This document shows, piece after piece, positions 11,037 through 39,159 of a stretch of 64,000 nt of DNA. The stretch lies in the IMG/VR virus record IMGVR_UViG_3300033066_001842, one strand, 5' to 3'. Under the pieces are notes generated by a model. That model ran no database searches. It was given only the letters and a program-made list of their open reading frames with translations, and was not told the DNA's origin. The first letter of the stretch is position 1, and each line of letters starts with the position of its first letter. Both the position numbers and the translations under genes were made by a program. This DNA is from a virus.

Positions 11037-11521
11037 TACGGTGCGTCAGTTGTCCAATACATTACAGTCAATGAATCACTGGCAGTAAACGGTCTGTACT
11101 CTGGTAGCGTTACCACAACCTGTTTGGGATTAGGGCCAGCTACAGGCTCCAGAAAATCTACCACATCTCCCCCAATCCTAGAACTCTTGAAACTGATTAT
11201 AATCGCCCCTACAGGCGTATAATTAAGATTGTAAGTAATAGGTTGCTGTGGGGCATCAGTAATAAACGTCAAACGTTGAATTACAATGCGTGGCACAGTT
11301 ACGGGGGCAACCGCATTCAGTCTCGGAGGGCTCACTGAAGTATCAATTGTCAATCCCGTTCCCAATGCTACACAAACTGGAACACTTACCAAATTGGCAC
11401 CCACACTAACAGGAATCGAAGCCGCAATTTGTACACTGTTGCCCTTACACTTCTGGTTATTCAACACAGAACTATTCTGTGCAAACAACCCAACTGCAAT
11501 TAACCCAATAAGTAGTTTCAT
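11036..11521 (-). CDS. secreted/exported hypothetical protein
   Basis: N-terminal signal-like MKLLIGLIAVGLFAQ. Confidence 0.4.
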   Translation of the reverse strand: MKLLIGLIAVGLFAQNSSVLNNQKCKGNSVQIAASIPVSVGANLVSVPVCVALGTGLTIDTSVSPPRLNAVAPVTVPRIVIQRLTFITDAPQQPITYNLNYTPVGAIIISFKSSRIGGDVVDFLEPVAGPNPKQVVVTLPEYRPFTASDSLTVMYWTTDAP

Positions 11522-11949
11522 ATTTTCTTACCACCTTCTTTCATTCTATTTTCTTTCTTGTGGTCTGGGCGATTTTTATTGTATTCAAATTTCTCAATAA
11601 TAGCCCCTTCCAAATCCAACTTCAAATATCCAGCTAAATCAAAAATTCGAATACAAGCATCCGCCAATTCAACCTCAATCATTAGACGATTGGGTAAATG
11701 GGTATCATACAAATCTTTCCGATAACCCTCTAAAGCCTCACTCAACTCGGAGTGAATCAAATCCAACTTACTAGCTACAAGAGTTTTATTGAAAAAATCT
11801 AACATTCCACGATTAGCAGAAGAAAGACTTAACAAATATTTAATATCAAGAGCTTCATCCCACCAACCCGAATTAAAAGAAGCAATATAACAAACCTTTT
11901 GCCAATCACTAATTGTGTATTGGTATCCTGGAGGAATTCCTTTATCCAT
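11518..11949 (-). CDS. MazG-like nucleotide pyrophosphohydrolase
   Basis: ELSEALEGYRKD...EVELADACIRIFDLAGY: the EXXE...E/D metal-binding helix pair of the MazG family. Confidence 0.55.
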   Translation of the reverse strand: MDKGIPPGYQYTISDWQKVCYIASFNSGWWDEALDIKYLLSLSSANRGMLDFFNKTLVASKLDLIHSELSEALEGYRKDLYDTHLPNRLMIEVELADACIRIFDLAGYLKLDLEGAIIEKFEYNKNRPDHKKENRMKEGGKKI

Positions 11950-13127
11950 TATTCTGGGTTAACCTTAAGTCCCAAATCTTTTGCAGTTTTAACAGCCAGC
12001 ATATCAGCAAGGGATAGCCCAATATTCCCACCATTGGCACCGCTACCCATAACGACACTGGGAGTAAGTGGATGTTTGCTGTCCTTAATAGCTTGAGCAT
12101 ATCTTTCATGAACATACTTATAAGCCTCCAATTTTTGAGACAAAGCACCGTCAGCACTCATGATAAGCCGACGTTTTTCCGCCTCACCCTGTCCTTCCAG
12201 AATCGCTTTTTGTTTACCAAATTCCGCCGCATCTTTCTGCAATTTCGCAACATCACGTTGTTGTTCTGCTTCAGTAACCGCTTGAGCTTTAATGACTTCC
12301 TGATCCCATTTGGCTTTAGCTGCCTGCGCCTCACCCTCTTTTGCGGCGGTAATTGCGCGTTGTTCGGCTTCTTTTGCTTGAGCAATAGCAGTCTGAACTT
12401 TCATAGCCAAAGCCTGTTGATCTTTGATTTGTGCTTCAACTTGTTTGTCGTAACTCAAATCCTTAATGGCGAAGTTGAACGTTTTCAACCCAAACTCATT
12501 CATTGCTGCTTGTTCCTGGCGTGCAATAAGCCCATTATTTGTTACAATTTGCACAACCGTAACAATCTTCATTTGCTTATCATTGATTGGGTCTGGAACT
12601 TGAATATCCTTTTGCACCGTCTTATAAACACCATTCTTGATTTGGTCTTCAATATAGTGCAAAAGATCATTTCTCTTTTCAGCCGCACTCTCTTTGGAAC
12701 TCATCAGGGGGCCGCTCAAATAAATACACTTGGAAACAGACGTACTCACCAAATTGCTATGTAGTGCCTCGGAGCTTCCATAAGCCTTATGAATCATAGT
12801 CAAATGCTTGCCATCCAAAGGCAATTCAATTTGAACACTTCCCTTTGCGGTTCCATGGCCATTGTCATTAAATCGAATCGGTTGCTCAAACGCATATGTA
12901 GAACGTCTGGGATATACAGTGAGCTTTCCAAAGCCCTGCCACTTCCAGCCCGGTTCGGTATGCCAAGTTAGCTCCCCACTCATGGGAGATTGGACGACCA
13001 TAATATCATGGGCATCCAAGTTTTCAAACATATTTGTAAACATTACGGTTGCAACAATGCAACCTAAAACAGCAAAAATCCCTTTGGCAATAAAACCAAA
13101 CGGACTCGATTCATTATCGTAGCGCAT
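11949..13127 (-). CDS. SPFH/band-7 (stomatin/prohibitin-like) membrane protein
   Basis: N-terminal TM helix, SPFH-like core, long A/E/Q/K-rich coiled-coil tail (AQAKEAEQRAITAAKEGEAQAAKAK...). Confidence 0.5.
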   Translation of the reverse strand: MRYDNESSPFGFIAKGIFAVLGCIVATVMFTNMFENLDAHDIMVVQSPMSGELTWHTEPGWKWQGFGKLTVYPRRSTYAFEQPIRFNDNGHGTAKGSVQIELPLDGKHLTMIHKAYGSSEALHSNLVSTSVSKCIYLSGPLMSSKESAAEKRNDLLHYIEDQIKNGVYKTVQKDIQVPDPINDKQMKIVTVVQIVTNNGLIARQEQAAMNEFGLKTFNFAIKDLSYDKQVEAQIKDQQALAMKVQTAIAQAKEAEQRAITAAKEGEAQAAKAKWDQEVIKAQAVTEAEQQRDVAKLQKDAAEFGKQKAILEGQGEAEKRRLIMSADGALSQKLEAYKYVHERYAQAIKDSKHPLTPSVVMGSGANGGNIGLSLADMLAVKTAKDLGLKVNPE

Positions 13128-13350
13128 CTTTTTCCTTTTCTAATTTTGCGTTTTCTTGGTTAAGTTTGTGTTTCAATTGTAGAAACTCACGATACTCTTC
13201 AATATCGTCAAGCTGTTTATACAATTTTTTCTTTTCTTTATATCTGAACGCTTGAAAAACTTTTTGTCCAGATAGTAGGGGATTAAAAACCTGATCGATG
13301 AAAAATACAACAATCAAAGCTATTCCAATTAATTCAACAAATTGGAGCAT
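13114..13350 (-). CDS. small membrane protein (overlaps the SPFH gene start; NfeD-like partner?)
   Basis: one TM helix IGIALIVVFFI then a charged coiled coil; 4-nt overlap with the downstream SPFH gene suggests translational coupling. Confidence 0.35.
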   Translation of the reverse strand: MLQFVELIGIALIVVFFIDQVFNPLLSGQKVFQAFRYKEKKKLYKQLDDIEEYREFLQLKHKLNQENAKLEKEKDALR

Positions 13351-13505
13351 ATTTTTTCCTTGTTTGAATTTTGAACTATATTTCGCAAATAGTAACAGAG
13401 GGTATTACCCTACCGCTCCCATATTGTAAAGAGCAATCAAACCTTTAGGGTTCTTTTACCCGTGGTGGGAGCAATAAACTATCGGCATCGGTTCAAAAAA
13501 GTTGT

Positions 13506-13638
13506 TGGATGGGGTGAGATTCGAACTCACAACCTCTCGTTTAGCATACGATAAAGTTAATCAAAACGGTTCAAATTTACGTTTGAACTAAAAGGTAGAC
13601 TAACAGTTTTTAGCGCTCTACCATTGAGCTACCCACCC
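13506..13638 (-). ncRNA. tRNA-like RNA with a ~70-nt insert replacing the anticodon arm (element E1)
   Basis: ends pair as a 7-bp acceptor stem GGGTGGG/CCCATCC; D-arm GCTC-AATGGTA-GAGC; T-arm GTGAG-TTCGAAT-CTCAC; discriminator A, no CCA; the insert has a CTAAAA/TTTTAG helix closing a 14-nt loop and a GTTCAAA/TTTGAAC hairpin. Confidence 0.45.
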
Positions 13639-13652
13639 ATAAAAAAATCGGA

Positions 13653-13781
13653 GATTGGTAAAGGGATTCGAACCCTTATTAGCGGCTCTGAATGCAATAA
13701 CCTTTATCTAGTCGGTTCTTATAGAACTAAAAAGGGCGACAAAGATGTTTTTACGCTGTCCTACCATTAGACGATACCAAT
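13653..13781 (-). ncRNA. tRNA-like RNA with a ~70-nt insert replacing the anticodon arm (element E2, paralogue of E1)
   Basis: acceptor ATTGGTA/TACCAAT perfect; D-arm GTCT-AATGGTA-GGAC; T-arm AAGGG-TTCGAAT-CCCTT; no CCA; the insert shares TAAAAAC, a 6-bp helix TAAAAA/TTTTTA closing a 14-nt loop, a GTTC-TATAA-GAAC hairpin and GAACCG with E1. Confidence 0.45.
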
Positions 13782-13856
13782 CATAAAAGAAAATAATTAG
13801 AACTAAAAAGGGCGAAAGAACGTTTTATTCACCACTTCCCCGTATTTGGAGCGCCT

Positions 13857-13930
13857 TTCCAGAATCGAACTGGATACCATTGTTTTGCAGACAATCGACT
13901 AACCATTTGTCTTAAAGTGCATATGGTGGG
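13857..13930 (-). tRNA. tRNA-Cys(GCA)
   Basis: acceptor GCACTTT/AAGGCGC (A3·C70 mismatch), perfect anticodon stem ATTGT/ACAAT with loop CTGCAAA, T-arm TCCAG-TTCGATT-CTGGA, CCA encoded. Confidence 0.65.
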
Positions 13931-13933
13931 GAA

Positions 13934-13961
13934 GGTAAGATTCGAACTTACTATTGATTAA
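13934..13961 (-). other. orphan tRNA 3' half (T-arm plus acceptor 3' strand plus CCA) with no matching 5' half
   Basis: minus-strand read GTAAG-TTCGAAT-CTTAC-CTTCCCC-A-CCA; no complementary GGGGAAG-type 5' strand within 130 nt upstream; the HNH gene starts 90 bp away. Confidence 0.3.
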
Positions 13962-14052
13962 TTATGAGTTAATTGTGTTTACCTATAATTCTTTCAAAGC
14001 GGTTCTAATCACTTTCTTATATCTCTATACTAACATAAATAATGGGAGCCCG

Positions 14053-14472
14053 TCAAGGATTCGATCTTCCATGTTCCCTAATTCTATGACAGTTGGCACA
14101 GAGAACAACACATTTTGAAATTTCGTCATTAAGTTTATCAATAGGACTTAAAGTCATATGACTTACATTATATTTCTTATCCAAAGCATCTAAATGGTGA
14201 AAATCCATTACATAAAAAGGAAATTTTTTATGACAATCGAAACAAGGTTTATTTTTAGCTTCCCTTATAATATTTCTATTTAGTGCTTGTTTTATAACAC
14301 GTTTAATAGCTATTTTTTCTAAACGTTTTTTATTAGTTTTACAATATAAACTATTATGATCTTTTTGACATTGTTTACACCAAGGCTGTTTATAAATTTT
14401 TCCACTTTTATAGCGCCTTATATTAAAACAAGTTAGAGCCTTATTTGTTTGACATCTATTACAAAACTTCAT
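14053..14472 (-). CDS. HNH homing endonuclease
   Basis: CFDCHKKFPFYVMDFHHLD...CANCHRIREH; the C-terminal half resembles the HNH at 825..1250. Confidence 0.7.
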   Translation of the reverse strand: MKFCNRCQTNKALTCFNIRRYKSGKIYKQPWCKQCQKDHNSLYCKTNKKRLEKIAIKRVIKQALNRNIIREAKNKPCFDCHKKFPFYVMDFHHLDALDKKYNVSHMTLSPIDKLNDEISKCVVLCANCHRIREHGRSNP

Positions 14473-14512
14473 TGACTTTGATTCTATTATAACATATCAA
14501 AGTCTTTTTTAT

Positions 14513-14586
14513 GGAAGCGAGAGAAGGAATCGAACCTTCGATCTAACTTTCAAAGAGTTACGTTTTACCAATTAAACTATCTCGCC
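14513..14586 (-). tRNA. tRNA-Gln(UUG)
   Basis: acceptor GGCGAGA/TCTCGCT, D-arm GTTT-AATTGGTA-AAAC, perfect anticodon stem TAACT/AGTTA with loop CTTTGAA, T-arm GAAGG-TTCGATT-CCTTC, CCA encoded. Confidence 0.7.
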
Positions 14587-14640
14587 ATAAATATGAGTCA
14601 AAGTCATTAGTCCTGCCAGTTGAACGAACGGGCCAAAACC

Positions 14641-14898
14641 CTATTCTAACATGGAAGGGTTATCAACAATTGATACATTCTTTCCGGGGCGTGCGAACCA
14701 TATCGTGTTTAGCTTCTTAGCGTTAGGAGCACCCCGCTTCATCCCACTATCCACAACCCAATTTTCTTTCACCAACTGAACTCTTGCGGGTCTTTCTGAG
14801 TCTGGGGCAATATGTAACCCCTTCTGAATTTCTTCATCCGTAGCCCCATGTGGCCCACGTCTGGAAATGAATTCATAAATCTGTTCTTTAATTGTCAC
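14641..14898 (-). CDS. hypothetical small protein (possible winged-helix DNA-binding)
   Basis: 85 aa, basic C-terminal half; weak. Confidence 0.3.
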   Translation of the reverse strand: MTIKEQIYEFISRRGPHGATDEEIQKGLHIAPDSERPARVQLVKENWVVDSGMKRGAPNAKKLNTIWFARPGKNVSIVDNPSMLE

Positions 14899-15077
14899 TT
14901 TTTTGGCCTACATTTTTGACAATCTTTGGCATTTCTGGCGGTAGTTTTAAAGCTTTCTTTGCATTTACGGCAAAAAAACTCTTTTTCTTCCATAATATGC
15001 AATCCGAATTTTCGTGGATTTGTAGACAAACTATGAAAACTATCCAGTTTCCCGTAATCTCTATAAATCTTAGGCAT
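14895..15077 (-). CDS. zinc-ribbon small protein
   Basis: CRKCKESF...CQKCRPKK. Confidence 0.3.
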   Translation of the reverse strand: MPKIYRDYGKLDSFHSLSTNPRKFGLHIMEEKEFFCRKCKESFKTTARNAKDCQKCRPKK

Positions 15078-15226
15078 AAAATCCTTTTATTAGCGGGGAG
15101 CCCGATATACCTTTTATGGACTCCCCTATAAGTTTTTGCTTAATAATTTGTAATCAGAGTAGCCCACCAACACTTGATGTTAATCGTTTTGTTCTACCGC
15201 TGAACTACTCCCGCATAAATATTTTG

Positions 15227-15256
15227 GGGCGGGAGCTTGGATTTGAACCAAGGCAT
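15227..15256 (-). other. second orphan tRNA 3' half, possibly the 3' end of a ~150-nt tRNA-like RNA extending to about 15377
   Basis: minus-strand read CTTGG-TTCAAAT-CCAAG-CTCCCGC-C-CCA; the best upstream partner, GCGGGTT at 15371-15377, gives only 5 of 7 pairs; TTTAAAAACTG motif inside, as in E1/E2. Confidence 0.25.
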
Positions 15257-15408
15257 AAACTTTAGAGTTGTCAGTTGATCTCTTTTGTAATTAAAAGCAG
15301 GTGAACCTTCGGGGTAAAAAGTTAAACTTAAAACATTTCAGTTTTTAAATCTAAACTTTAGCCTGAAGTTAGAAAGGGAAACCCGCTAGGGCTCCCTCCC
15401 CGAAATCG

Positions 15409-16155
15409 TTAAGCGAACAAATAATTCAGAAGGGTTTTCCCAACCTTAATATTCGTGTCCGCTTCAAACTCGTTTGCACGGGCTCTGGCTTTACGGATGG
15501 CGCGAATCAACATATCACACCGATCCAAAACCTCAGCCTTTTGTGCTGGTGTATACTTTGCTGACCATTCCTGTTTGGTAAGGGTTCCAACAGGAACGTC
15601 TTTATCAATCAATTGAACTTGTGCGGGATGCTTATCAGTAGCAGGAGCCAATGTAAGAACCTCTTTATCTTTCTTGGTTCTCACCCCCGTAACAACTCGC
15701 GCCTGATAAATCCCCTTACCCTTTTGTTCATCTGGGCGGAAAGCTTTAGCAGGATCAAGAGTAGGAATCGCACGCGCCAAATTCTGAACTTCTTTCAAAC
15801 TCTTTTCCAGCGCCAAAAGTGCAGTGGCGGGAATATTCTTCAAAAGAATAGTTCCATCCTCCAACACTACATCGGCTTTGGCTTGTGTGTTGGCCACATC
15901 GATTTGAACTGAGGAATCCATAGCTTTGGCTACAATTCCAGAAACCCAATCCAACTCATGCTCCACAGTGGTTTGAATATCCAACTGCTCTTCTGTAACA
16001 GGAGGACGCCCCTCTTCATTACTTTGAAAAGTAAGCAACTTCGATTCAAAAAGCTGCCCCTTATTAGTAAACGTTGTGGTTAAATCTCCAAGGGCTTTAG
16101 TAGCTTGCCCTGCAAGATTGGATTCTACAGCCAAAATTTCATGAAGTTTTGACAT
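15409..16155 (-). CDS. hypothetical protein
   Basis: 248-aa ORF between the tRNA-like region and the Ro60 orthologue; no motif recognised. Confidence 0.45.
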   Translation of the reverse strand: MSKLHEILAVESNLAGQATKALGDLTTTFTNKGQLFESKLLTFQSNEEGRPPVTEEQLDIQTTVEHELDWVSGIVAKAMDSSVQIDVANTQAKADVVLEDGTILLKNIPATALLALEKSLKEVQNLARAIPTLDPAKAFRPDEQKGKGIYQARVVTGVRTKKDKEVLTLAPATDKHPAQVQLIDKDVPVGTLTKQEWSAKYTPAQKAEVLDRCDMLIRAIRKARARANEFEADTNIKVGKTLLNYLFA

Positions 16156-16520
16156 TTTATTTTCCTATATTAGAAATAATTTTAGCTACTTTATCATAGT
16201 GTGTATTACACAAATCACACACACCTATTGCCATAGAAAACAAAATAATAAAGCGTTTAGAAACTTTTTCTTGGGTAGTAAACCCTGGATAATCGCAAAC
16301 TAAAACTTTTTTTCCATAAAAATTGATAGCCCCTTTTAAAAACACCTAAGCCACTTCCCGTCAAGTAGTTTGCTTTTGGTGTTAGCTTTTTGTATTGAGG
16401 TACATAAAAATTAGAGGCTATCAATTTTATCCTCGGACTAAATGGGTTGATCTAGGAGTTTTTTTGTTTACCAATTAAGCAATAACCCTAAATCGAGCGG
16501 CCCAAGGATTTTTTTTAGAA

Positions 16521-18212
16521 TTAATCTTCGTCTTCAGTTAAGGCTTTTTCCGAATTAAACGCATGAATTACACTTGTTACATTCGGATCAAATCCCGTTA
16601 CATCCAACGAATAAGGATCACTATCACTAGCAAAACCAGCAACACCATAACCAGTAGACTGCATACCAAGAGACATCAATCTCGTTTTGGGCTTATTCAT
16701 AAGTTTACGATAATTTTGCGTTAATGTCAAGGGGTGTTCCCCTGTATTGAAATCGTTATCGGTGATATGAATGAAGCAATCCACGTCTTGCTTGTTCTTG
16801 ATAGCATGTTTAATTGGTAAACCTGCATCAGTGTAACCCGTATTATATTTTTTGGCTTTTGTAATAGCCGTTGAAATATTGTCGGTTTTGGTCAATGGCA
16901 AGTCATTCAGAACACTAGAGAAACATTTGACATCACACCATGGTTCTCTTTTTACAATGGTAAGGGCGATTGTGGCGGCGGCTTCACAGAAAGACATTAA
17001 ACCGTTCGCCATCATGCTAGACATTGAGCGCGAAACGTCAACAGAAACCATAAAGTTTTTGCCAGTAGCGGGGGCAACATCGAAAGAGTTGTTGAAAGCT
17101 TCTTCCAAAGCTTCTTGAATTTTGGGAACAGGTTTCCAGGTTAATGAACCTTTCAAACCTTGTCCTTTTCCATAAGTGCGCAGAGCAAACAAAAGTTTAA
17201 GAGGGTGAATTCCAGCTTTTGTCAATTGCTCAATATTGGTAAGGCGACGTACAACCGTTTTGACATCCTCATTAGTTCCTGAAAGTAAACCACTCGCAGT
17301 TAATGAAGAAAGTTGGCGAACGGTTGCCATGTATGGCATTTTCGCAAGTAGGGCTTGTTGAACTTGAGGCACATTTTTAAACCATGTGGGAATCATTTCA
17401 TGGGTCATATCGGTAGCCCCAATCAATTCCACAAGACGTTTAATTTGTGCGTCAGATTTTTCATTTTCTTTCCATGATTGGATTTCAATGAAAGCTTCAA
17501 TCTGGCGTCCCCCCTTTGTCAAAATTTTAGGATCAATATCGGCTAAAGCTTTTAAAACTCCAGCTTCATTTCCATTAACCACATAATTAATGAAAGAGTT
17601 TGTAATTGATCCTTGAAACTCAGGGTGGGAAAGGCGAAGTAAGTCCTGGTGCGACCAACCATCACGTTGACGATACTTCAATAATTGATAAACCAGTGAG
17701 TCAAATGACTTATCGGTGTACCAGTCACCTACATAACGTTTCAACATGCGGCCCCATCCACGCATTCCCGTAACAATTTCCGCAAAGTGAAATAAATCAG
17801 TACCAGTATTGGCAACATGTTTTAGTTCATTGAGGAACATATCACGAACAGTACGACTAGGATGCGATGCGCCTAGAGCCAAAGTATATAACATTGGTTC
17901 TTTTGTAAGAGCACGACGTTGGCTTGAAATTTCTCGAATCTTTTGAACAACTTCTTTGGGGAAATTTTGAATCATCGCTCGGATGTTCGCCGTATTTTGG
18001 GCCAAGAGTTGTTGCGATCCTACAGCAAAGGTATGATTTTCCACACCCAAGATAAGGAATTTTTCGAGAAACTGTTCAGGAGTAAGTTTCAGTGAGTATC
18101 CGCCCCCAAAATTAGGAACAGAGAACTTTGCATTTTTCCCCGTAACAGGTTTTGTTACAGGATTGCTTTTTGCAGTTTTGTTTTTCTTTTGAGAGTAAGT
18201 AGAAATGGGCAT
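16521..18212 (-). CDS. Ro60/Rsr-like protein (TROVE domain plus C-terminal vWA)
   Basis: 563 aa; ~370-aa N-terminal helical-repeat region followed by a vWA fold with MIDAS VSVDVSRSMS (DxSxS); size and domain order match Ro60 orthologues. Confidence 0.55.
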   Translation of the reverse strand: MPISTYSQKKNKTAKSNPVTKPVTGKNAKFSVPNFGGGYSLKLTPEQFLEKFLILGVENHTFAVGSQQLLAQNTANIRAMIQNFPKEVVQKIREISSQRRALTKEPMLYTLALGASHPSRTVRDMFLNELKHVANTGTDLFHFAEIVTGMRGWGRMLKRYVGDWYTDKSFDSLVYQLLKYRQRDGWSHQDLLRLSHPEFQGSITNSFINYVVNGNEAGVLKALADIDPKILTKGGRQIEAFIEIQSWKENEKSDAQIKRLVELIGATDMTHEMIPTWFKNVPQVQQALLAKMPYMATVRQLSSLTASGLLSGTNEDVKTVVRRLTNIEQLTKAGIHPLKLLFALRTYGKGQGLKGSLTWKPVPKIQEALEEAFNNSFDVAPATGKNFMVSVDVSRSMSSMMANGLMSFCEAAATIALTIVKREPWCDVKCFSSVLNDLPLTKTDNISTAITKAKKYNTGYTDAGLPIKHAIKNKQDVDCFIHITDNDFNTGEHPLTLTQNYRKLMNKPKTRLMSLGMQSTGYGVAGFASDSDPYSLDVTGFDPNVTSVIHAFNSEKALTEDED

Positions 18213-36633: not shown

Positions 36634-36725
36634 CCCCGTTGGGAGGATGGCTCCTCAAGCGGCTTTATAATCCGTCACACCAGATCAGTGTCTAGAACGT
36701 AGTTCGATTCTACGGGCGGGGACCA
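36634..36725 (+). tRNA. aberrant 92-nt type-II-like tRNA with a 9-nt anticodon loop CUUUAUAAU
   Basis: acceptor CCCCGTT/GGCGGGG (2 G·U), D-stem GGAG/CTCC, 4-bp anticodon stem GCGG/CCGT closing a 9-nt loop, variable stem-loop ACAC-CAGATCA-GTGT, perfect T-arm CGTAG-TTCGATT-CTACG, A73, CCA encoded. Confidence 0.35.
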
Positions 36726-39083: not shown

Positions 39084-39159
39084 GCTTGGGAGGCTGAAGA
39101 GTGGAGGCACCGCCCTTACAAGACGGCTAAAGTGGGTTCAACTCCCACCCCAAGTACCA
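39084..39159 (+). tRNA. tRNA-Val(UAC)
   Basis: acceptor GCTTGGG/CCCAAGT (G·U at 1-72), anticodon loop CTTACAA (stem has one C·A), T-arm GTGGG-TTCAACT-CCCAC, CCA encoded. Confidence 0.55.

Follow-up and report, generated by a model that had tools for sequence, protein, structure and literature searches.

What do the 3' ends of transfer RNA (tRNA) genes do in a viral genome when no 5' half stands before them? The question is raised by the IMG/VR virus record IMGVR_UViG_3300033066_001842, of which a stretch of 64,000 nucleotides (nt), the window, was analysed. Coordinates refer to the whole stretch, and all elements of the locus lie on the minus strand. Two segments of this locus consist of a T-arm, a 7-nt acceptor 3' strand, one further nucleotide and an encoded CCA. 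Segment (i) contains the T-arm CTTGG-TTCAAAT-CCAAG (15252-15236), the acceptor strand CTCCCGC (15235-15229) and C plus CCA (15228-15225). Segment (ii) contains the T-arm GTAAG-TTCGAAT-CTTAC (13951-13935), the acceptor strand CTTCCCC (13934-13928) and A plus CCA (13927-13924). A preliminary description of the window had recognised both, and both are real. It placed segment (i) at 15227..15256, which reads from the sequence as 15252-15225, and segment (ii) at 13934..13961, which is 10 nt off the true position (13951-13924).

The partner strands were sought with a census script run over the whole window. The script collects 5-base-pair (bp) stems with a TTCRANN-type loop, takes the 7 nt that come after as the 3' acceptor strand and looks up to 300 nt to each side for a complementary 7-mer. 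Where a strict 7/7 partner is found for an ordinary tRNA T-arm of the window, it lies 63-82 nt upstream. Neither segment has an upstream partner within 300 nt, which bears out the earlier statement that a 5' acceptor strand is missing at the normal distance. Each has exactly one 7/7 Watson-Crick partner within this range, and it lies downstream. The partner of segment (i) is GCGGGAG (15214-15208, +21), 10 nt past the CCA, and that of segment (ii) is GGGGAAG (13841-13835, +93), beyond a complete tRNA-Cys in the loop. A 7/7 match within 100 nt would arise by chance with a probability of about 100/16384 for each segment and about 4e-5 for both. GCGGGAG is followed directly by TA and GTTC-AGCGGTA-GAAC, a canonical D-arm. 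The weak upstream pairing (5 of 7) with GCGGGTT (15378-15372) considered earlier is irrelevant; the TTTAAAAACTG motif reported from that interval is present, at about 15350-15340.

The gene order is thus circularly permuted, with the 3' half before the 5' half, complementary acceptor strands and a short linker. The flagged segments are in all likelihood not broken tRNA genes but the front parts of tRNA-shaped non-coding RNAs with a rotated order of parts. Both elements are probably permuted tRNA-like modules with the architecture of YrlA-type Y RNAs. The one with segment (i), the O2 RNA, would belong to a family linked to the protein DUF7873, and the one with segment (ii), unit A, would be a Y-like RNA of the Ro60 locus with a nested tRNA-Cys. 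The preliminary description had listed further tRNA-like RNAs akin to the neighbouring units E1 and E2 among its options. This was right as to their tRNA-like, non-coding nature, whereas their order is circularly permuted and they are not insert-containing.

The O2 RNA and its linkage to DUF7873

The core of the O2 RNA (15150..15297) was delimited by direct reading, the census, covariation, RNAalifold, flank duplexes and a covariance model, R1, which scores it at 104 bits. It consists of the T-arm, the acceptor hairpin and the D-arm, in this order, all enclosed by a long stem (5' strand 15297-15261, 3' strand 15185-15150). Within this stem GTTT (15260-15257) pairs with AAAC (15189-15186) as an analogue of the anticodon stem. 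The acceptor loop (15224-15215) is followed by the acceptor 5' strand (15214-15208) and the D-arm (15205-15191). The gene for the 248-amino-acid DUF7873 protein (15409..16155) precedes the O2 RNA and itself follows rsr, the Ro60 gene of the locus.

Relatives of the locus were obtained through Ro60 homologues of 47-53% identity, on the contigs L004, L005, L007, L008, L011 and L081. L005 and L081 are the only Ro60 relatives that also encode DUF7873, and both carry the O2 element after the DUF7873 gene. The O2 acceptor stems are wholly different in L005 (CAGCCTC/GAGGCTG) and L081 (GGGGCCA/TGGCCCC). Through a DUF7873 alignment, 17 IMG/VR loci and one locus of a metagenome-assembled genome were fetched. 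In 17 of these 18 loci a script finds a T-arm, 7 nt, NCCA, 19-48 nt and a perfect complement, about 130-330 nt past the DUF7873 stop codon, and the remaining one (L084) is recovered by R1 as a non-training match of 56.8 bits. Four cultured phages, Rhizobium phage RHph_Y65, Ralstonia phage RSL1, Vibrio phage K479 and Gordonia phage Ziko, carry the O2 element in a region that is unannotated.

These four phages are included in alignment A3, which holds 23 O2-family sequences. In the four specified helices 95.7% of the cells are paired, versus 58% in shuffles, and the covariation score is 0.99 versus 0.24, a value reached by 0 of 500 shuffles. When the 3' partners are slid by 1-3 columns, pairing falls to 38-51%. 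The acceptor hairpin, with compensatory changes in 7/7 pairs, and the T stem are each 100% paired; the acceptor value is partly due to selection, since the entry script required 7/7 pairing, and the T stem was selected too. The other two helices were not selected. The D stem is 93.5% paired and the anticodon-stem analogue (33-36/131-134) 84.8% paired, each with compensatory changes in 4/4 pairs. In the encoded CCA, C66 does not vary at all, and the conservation of A68 is at least 90%. The same four helices are returned by RNAalifold from alignment A8, whose eight sequences were aligned separately and come from loci that are also in A3. The flanks form duplexes of -10.5 to -30 kcal/mol in 15/15 O2 members tested, the long stem of Y-RNA type.

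R1 was built from A3. Its non-training matches include the Klebsiella jumbo phage KpLz-2_45 (57.9 bits) and Arthrobacter phage Talia1610 (53.6 and 45.6 bits). Counting loci with at least 45 bits or in the training alignment, 28 of the 30 DUF7873 loci examined, from phages or metagenomes, carry an O2 element, and 29 of 30 do so if weaker matches are admitted; the exceptions to the stricter count are Pseudanabaena phage PA-SR01, with weak R1 matches only (31 and 28.7 bits), and Lak-C1, with no R1 match. O2-type copies occur in tandem in RSL1 (L101, 3395-3475 and 3573-3724) and in Talia1610 (L107, 2284-2413 and 2437-2589).

In the clade of Ro60 phages, R1 finds O2 in 3/3 loci with DUF7873 and in 0/4 loci without it. 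The DUF7873 phages of GenBank are mainly those of Vibrio, Rhizobium, Klebsiella/Serratia, Prevotella (Lak), Ralstonia and Arthrobacter, and among these groups only Vibrio, with a single record, figures in the 353 Ro60-positive records. Because O2 tracks DUF7873 both within the Ro60 clade and in taxa without detectable Ro60, DUF7873 and not Ro60 is the conserved partner gene of O2. The DUF7873 family comprises at least 2500 homologues. PHROG and NCBIfam-type searches give it no family annotation that would point to a function, no sequence relative was found in PDB, and no paper in the literature searched mentions it.

The stretch between the DUF7873 gene and the core (15300..15408) forms, in the minimum free energy (MFE) fold, a hairpin closed by TTTCGGGG / CCCCGAAG and containing TTTAAAAACTG and CCCCGAAGG (15314-15306). 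The closing stem covaries, GGGG/CCCC being replaced by GGAG/CTCC in L005, and the sequence of this 5' domain is conserved in A8; a consensus structure for it was not obtainable from A8 with RNAalifold. The domain is assigned to the O2 transcript region and may be part of the mature O2 RNA. CCCCGAAGG recalls the vertebrate Y RNA GGUCCGAAGG and the bacterial GNCGAAN0-1G motif, and related ACCCRAWAG motifs are found in DUF7873 phages without Ro60. The leader of the O2 5' strand, ATATTTAT|G, is identical to that of the bona fide tRNA-Gln' of the nearby HNH cassette. Downstream of the core, a hairpin GGGGAG...CTCCCC (15095..15126) carries the loop motif AAGGTATAT and is not followed by a T-run; the hairpin with its loop motif is kept after the O2 RNA in L005, L081 and L085.

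Unit A and its neighbours in the Ro60 locus

Unit A (13784..14022) is recognised by direct reading, its MFE fold, the census and its homologues in L004 and L008; its R1 score is 31 bits. Its closing stem (14022-14005 / 13800-13784) is followed inwards by GAAC-CG (14005-14000), a helix GAAAGAA / TTCTTTC and an anticodon-like arm (13973-13957) with CAU. Then come segment (ii), the nested tRNA-Cys (13920-13847; called by ARAGORN and by Rfam with 45.5 bits) and the acceptor 5' strand (13841-13835). The 3' part contains AAAAC and then CCCTTTTTA-GTTC (13812-13800). In the MFE fold a 17-bp terminal stem closes the whole unit, with the tRNA-Cys included.

In the homologues of L004 and L008 (alignment A6) the sequence from GGTAAA through the anticodon-like arm, the T-arm and CC-TC-CC ACCA is conserved. 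Their acceptor hairpin CCTCTCC/GGAGAGG (+22/+23) has an 11-12-nt loop ending in TTAT (CCTCTCC ACCA actaaaattat GGAGAGG) and holds no tRNA-Cys. A reduced version in L011, TTCCCCC/GGGGGAA (+18), also lacks it. The unit A of the window differs from its homologues by the tRNA-Cys inserted in the acceptor loop. As its R1 score is low, the argument for unit A is built on its 7/7 complementarity, on three homologous hairpins of different sequence and on the stem that encloses it.

The slot of unit A is occupied by an ordinary tRNA of normal order in L007 (7010-7140, Met-CAU) and in L081 (6525-6665). The leader and trailer of these tRNAs pair into a bulged helix like that of the Y-like units (GGGTCG ... 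TTTTTTATCC). A tRNA inside a Y-RNA-like stem is possibly the ancestral state of unit A. By direct reading, the bulged helix covaries among the units (GGGT/ATCC, GAGT/ATTC, GAAC/GTTC). A promoter-like site, TTGACG-18-TAGTAT with an upstream TG (14056-14027), stops 5 nt short of the predicted 5' stem of unit A, and its -35 element is built from the remnant of a tRNA-Gln gene. In a promoter and terminator scan of the region the number of sites did not exceed the shuffle expectation, so this site is a weak lead only.

Unit A is followed by E2 (13650..13782, partner at -121) and E1 (13503..13638, partner at -125). In E2 the parts stand in tRNA order: the 5' acceptor strand and D-arm, AAAAAC, a capped bulged helix GTTC-tataa-GAAC, the T-arm and the 3' acceptor strand. 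E1 is like E2 and is called by Rfam as a tRNA with a 74-nt insert. When their 3' halves are moved before their 5' halves, E1 and E2 give a collinear full-length alignment (A7) with units of YrlA order in L004, L005, L007, L008, L011 and L079. By this alignment, E1 and E2 are the same kind of RNA, re-permuted so that the ends lie at the acceptor stem and the bulged stem, which resembles a Ro site, is capped by a hairpin. The Rfam call for E1 arises because E1 is a re-permuted Y-like RNA. The AAAAAC which the preliminary description saw in the inserts of these units is explained likewise: its counterpart in the YrlA consensus is the A-rich strand that follows the D-arm on the 3' side. For the shared motifs AAAAAC, CCTTTTTAGTTC and GAACCG, an origin in short tRNA introns or in a self-splicing, permuted arrangement of introns and exons had been considered; these ideas were dropped once the Ro60 gene and the homologues of YrlA order were found.

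Unit F (13373..13494), identified by direct reading, runs GAACCG ... GCTCCC-ACCA ... ATAT-GGGAGC ... GTTC and ends in ATAGTTC; it has an acceptor-like hairpin and no T- or D-arm. In L004, L007 and L008 the slot of unit F contains an acceptor hairpin, a D-arm, an anticodon arm and a T-arm, which is another permutation, with the break between the T-arm and the 3' acceptor strand.

The rsr gene (16521..18212) encodes a Ro60 orthologue of 563 amino acids with a TROVE and a Ro60-type vWA domain. The product matches TROVE (4e-27) and vWA_Ro60 (1e-36) in Pfam, RNA-bind_Rsr in NCBIfam (1.8e-86, below the equivalog cutoff) and PHROG 850, an RNA-binding protein. It is about 30-33% identical to the 'Ro-like RNA binding protein' of 353 GenBank phages. 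Downstream of rsr and on the same strand, O2 lies at 1.2 kb and unit A at about 2.5-2.6 kb, and the array near rsr comprises at least five such RNAs (O2, A, E2, E1 and F). All 20 tRNAs of the window encode CCA.

All six Ro60 relatives have a tRNA-Gln downstream of rsr, which in some is accompanied by an HNH gene. They also carry there several tRNA-like units, in which the partner strand follows the 3' strand at a distance of 16-27 nt, and YrlA matches below threshold (25-34 bits). A nucleotide search of GenBank phages with the region gave no relative, and scans of IMG/VR with the single Ro60 protein and with a Ro60 alignment gave nothing useful. A metagenome scan for Ro60 returned only two close relatives already known and distant Ro60 loci. 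A scan for the DNA pattern of the E-type core yielded one new locus (L079) and one chance match.

Comparison with Y RNAs and the alternatives

YrlA is a bacterial Y RNA bound by Ro60. Its effector module mimics a tRNA, with the parts ordered as T-arm, acceptor-like stem-loop and D-arm, and the anticodon stem is replaced by a long stem formed by the ends of the RNA. The YrlA genes lie on the strand of rsr, no more than 4 kb from it, and have been reported from 254 bacteria and 22 phages (PMC4201824; bioRxiv 10.1101/312249). In M. smegmatis the acceptor stem of YrlA measures 7 bp; RNase P cleaves this RNA both in vivo and in vitro, and the RNA acquires CCA (PMC4201824). A complex of phage Ro60, Y RNA and host PNPase is also documented (PMC12135203).

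The O2 RNA has the same order of parts, with tRNA-like T- and D-arms. The anticodon-stem analogue runs into a long stem of the flanks, as seen in the helix 33-36/131-134, in the 15/15 duplexes and in the terminal stem of unit A. In the window the RNAs share the strand of the Ro60 gene and are no more than about 4 kb away from it, and, as with YrlA, several Y RNAs share one locus. The 7-bp acceptor stem is that of the M. smegmatis RNA, and the A-rich AAAAAC 3' of the D-arm in the E and A units aligns to the Rfam consensus. Differences are also clear. The CCA is encoded and conserved here, not added; the O2 family is tied to DUF7873 and is present in taxa without detectable Ro60; unit A has a tRNA gene in its acceptor loop, and E1 and E2 are re-permuted to tRNA order.

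Several points weigh against assigning both elements to the Y RNA architecture, beginning with the selection built into A3 as described above. The GNCGAAN0-1G motif, a putative Ro60 contact placed near the 5' end in YrlA, is only approximated, by CCCCGAAGG upstream of the O2 module and by GAACCG/GGGTCG in units A and E; the near-motif at the 5' end of units A, E and F reads GAACCG in the window and GGGTCG or GAGTCG in the relatives. The gathering score of the Rfam YrlA model (RF02553), 69 bits, is reached by no family member, and the O2 RNA of the window has no YrlA match in Rfam even at E<=10. Unit A has no D-arm after its acceptor 5' strand, only a degenerate D region upstream, and R1 scores near 30 bits, such as the 31 bits of unit A, fall in the range of tandem-tRNA false positives. 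For the protein side, the presence of the O2 family in phage taxa without detectable Ro60 means that Ro60 may not be the partner of O2, while DUF7873 has no recognisable RNA-binding fold and no fold match in a structure comparison.

The Rfam result has to be read together with other loci. In the window the YrlA model gives one chimeric match of 26.6 bits (13593-13704), and among the relatives and family members there are sub-threshold matches of 25-41.9 bits, of which the full-length ones score 27.7-41.9. At its gathering score the model finds nothing in 13 other metagenomic rsr loci. R1 finds modules of T-arm, acceptor stem and D-arm directly beside rsr in about 10 of 13 such unrelated loci, with 29-47 bits. 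Because R1 finds these modules where the YrlA model finds none, failing the Rfam threshold is weak negative evidence and the O2 core is YrlA-like. The threshold seems too strict for much of the diversity of YrlA. The R1 modules beside rsr include those at L015, L021, L022, L024, L025, L026, L030, L036 and L037.

Disruption by the HNH endonuclease was among the explanations offered by the preliminary description. An HNH gene does lie between the two segments, and a mobile cassette (14053..14586) of a tRNA-Gln' (14586-14512; ARAGORN, Rfam) and the HNH endonuclease (14472-14053; PHROG HNH, 1e-26) did split a resident tRNA-Gln(UUG). The fragments of that event are other pieces, which had escaped notice. 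The 5' half (14634-14593; acceptor GGCCCGT, D-arm and anticodon arm) aligns to the intact tRNA-Gln of L008, L011 and L005 as far as ..GACTCAT, where the anticodon stem ends. The 3' remnant (14072-14043) consists of a degenerate T-arm, ACGGGCT (14053-14047), C and CCA, and ACGGGCT complements GGCCCGT 7/7, with G1.U72. The flagged segments keep intact 7/7 partners downstream, the permuted layout is found in relatives and in distant phages with no HNH gene nearby, and no relative restores an ordinary tRNA at the O2 site, so disruption, valid for the tRNA-Gln, is very unlikely for the segments in question. The att-like remnants also proposed fare even worse. Phage att sites often bear pieces of a host tRNA from the T-arm to the CCA, and the segments could be attP-like copies of such ends. 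However, the acceptor sequences differ in every homologue and the intact downstream partners co-vary with them, a D-arm follows, the homologues share the permuted layout, and unrelated phages have the segments in a constant place with respect to DUF7873 or rsr. No integrase family was found among the eight open reading frames (ORFs) of 11518-18212 scanned against Pfam, and an attP origin is exceedingly improbable.

True permuted tRNA genes, as in Cyanidioschyzon merolae, other algae and Thermofilum pendens, would be matured through a circular intermediate to functional tRNAs. The RNAs described here resemble them in that the 3' half, with the CCA-proximal strand, precedes the 5' half across a short linker and the acceptor stem is at first a closed hairpin, opened in those genes by RNase P or RNase Z. 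The CCA is encoded, and AUUAGRC after the anticodon-stem analogue resembles the 5' part of an anticodon loop of Leu type. Wang et al. (2018) likened YrlA to a circularly permuted tRNA and raised the same idea for it (bioRxiv 10.1101/312249). On the other hand, the flanks form long imperfect duplexes of 25-35 nt and no bulge-helix-bulge, the members of the O2 family do not allow a complete anticodon loop to be pieced together in a consistent way, and unit A already has a closed anticodon-like arm. The product is probably not a decoding tRNA, and we know of no bacterial or phage splicing endonuclease for the maturation of permuted tRNAs. This origin is therefore very unlikely, and so, to the same degree, is that of decayed, functionless tandem tRNAs (the T-arm of one and the D-arm of the next) or of genes resembling two-piece transfer-messenger RNA (tmRNA). 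Tandem tRNAs do score 27-29 bits with R1, and YrlA probably evolved from dimeric tRNAs; but in tandem tRNAs the acceptor strands need not pair, whereas here they pair 7/7 in every family member with compensatory change, and helix 1 and the long stem are conserved as well. The two-piece tmRNA of alpha-proteobacteria, cyanobacteria and some beta-proteobacteria also has the T-arm, 3' strand and CCA before the 5' strand, and its loop is excised to give a two-piece RNA ending in CCA, as proposed here. Permuted-tmRNA models give weak partial matches, limited to the T-arm and acceptor region. The RNAs of the window are much shorter, with no tag frame or pseudoknots; ARAGORN finds no tmRNA or tag ORF, the 4-bp D stem is canonical and the third pair is G3-C70 and not G3.U70.

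The basic design favoured here, a tRNA-like Y RNA beside Ro60, is already known from bacteria and some phages. The nearest phage case is the Ro60 of Thermus phage phiLo with its adjacent Y-like RNAs Yrl1 and Yrl2, in a complex that includes host PNPase. By the description in that paper, the Yrls were found through a CGAA motif and stem-loops, and permuted tRNA-like modules, an encoded CCA and DUF7873 are not reported there (PMC12135203). Novel here are a CCA encoded in the gene, a link to DUF7873 that does not depend on Ro60, a tRNA nested within one unit and permutation in both directions.

Possible processing, role and minor elements

The RNAs would fold into a tRNA-like L. Host RNase P would then cut at the junction of leader and +1 that is typical of tRNAs (TTTAT|G), and 3' trimming would expose the encoded CCA. 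RNase P and 3' trimming are the most economical reading because of the 7-bp acceptor stems and the conserved NCCA at the start of the loop. The acceptor loop would be released, together with the tRNA-Cys in unit A; a tRNA in a discarded loop may be neutral and simply co-released. By analogy with the M. smegmatis YrlA, the product would be a two-piece tRNA mimic ending in CCA, with the pieces joined through the acceptor stem and the long stem. As candidate binding sites, the bulged long stems of units A, E and F would serve Ro60, and that of O2 would serve DUF7873, Ro60 or both. The tRNA-like module might recruit a partner that recognises tRNA or acts in RNA decay, such as PNPase, as in the complexes of Ro60, Y RNA and PNPase (PMC12135203).

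A more specific role can be put forward only tentatively. The O2 RNA, as an anticodon-less tRNA mimic in two pieces with an encoded and conserved CCA end, is possibly not simply a Ro60 Y RNA but the RNA subunit of a separate ribonucleoprotein with DUF7873, widespread in tRNA-rich phages. On that assumption O2 might be aminoacylated, or it might be a decoy or a tether; its targets would be host enzymes or defence toxins with specificity for the elbow, acceptor stem and CCA end of tRNAs. DUF7873 would gain a testable function as the partner of a tRNA mimic.

A covarying RNA family with a 7-bp acceptor stem and an encoded NCCA is thus tightly linked to a very abundant, uncharacterised phage protein, and it sits unannotated in the cultured phages RSL1, RHph_Y65, Vibrio K479, Gordonia Ziko, Klebsiella KpLz-2_45 and Arthrobacter Talia1610. 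Programs for tRNA detection miss these RNAs or miscall them, for instance as a 'tRNA with a 74-nt insert'. For annotation, the family supplies a model of the 'empty' stretch between genes that recurs next to phage tRNA clusters. The locus also illustrates free rearrangement, with a tRNA gene in a loop that is probably discarded, re-permuted neighbours and, in the relatives, tRNAs inside a bulged stem of leader and trailer.

The cassette that split the tRNA-Gln has homologues, also composed of tRNA-Gln' and HNH, in L004 and L007. Behind its HNH gene, L004 retains an exact 20-nt 3' remnant of a tRNA-Gln of the L008 type. The C-terminus of the HNH protein of the window is encoded by the degenerate T-arm of the tRNA-Gln remnant. 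The cassette has the look of a homing endonuclease that brings its own replacement tRNA along.

Other atypical elements lie on the plus strand of the window. One is a T-arm followed by GGCGGGG ACCA (36698-36725) with its partner 81 nt upstream, called neither by ARAGORN nor by Rfam; two others (809-881 and 39084-39156) are tRNAs called by Rfam only. These are possibly further atypical tRNAs or tRNA-like RNAs.

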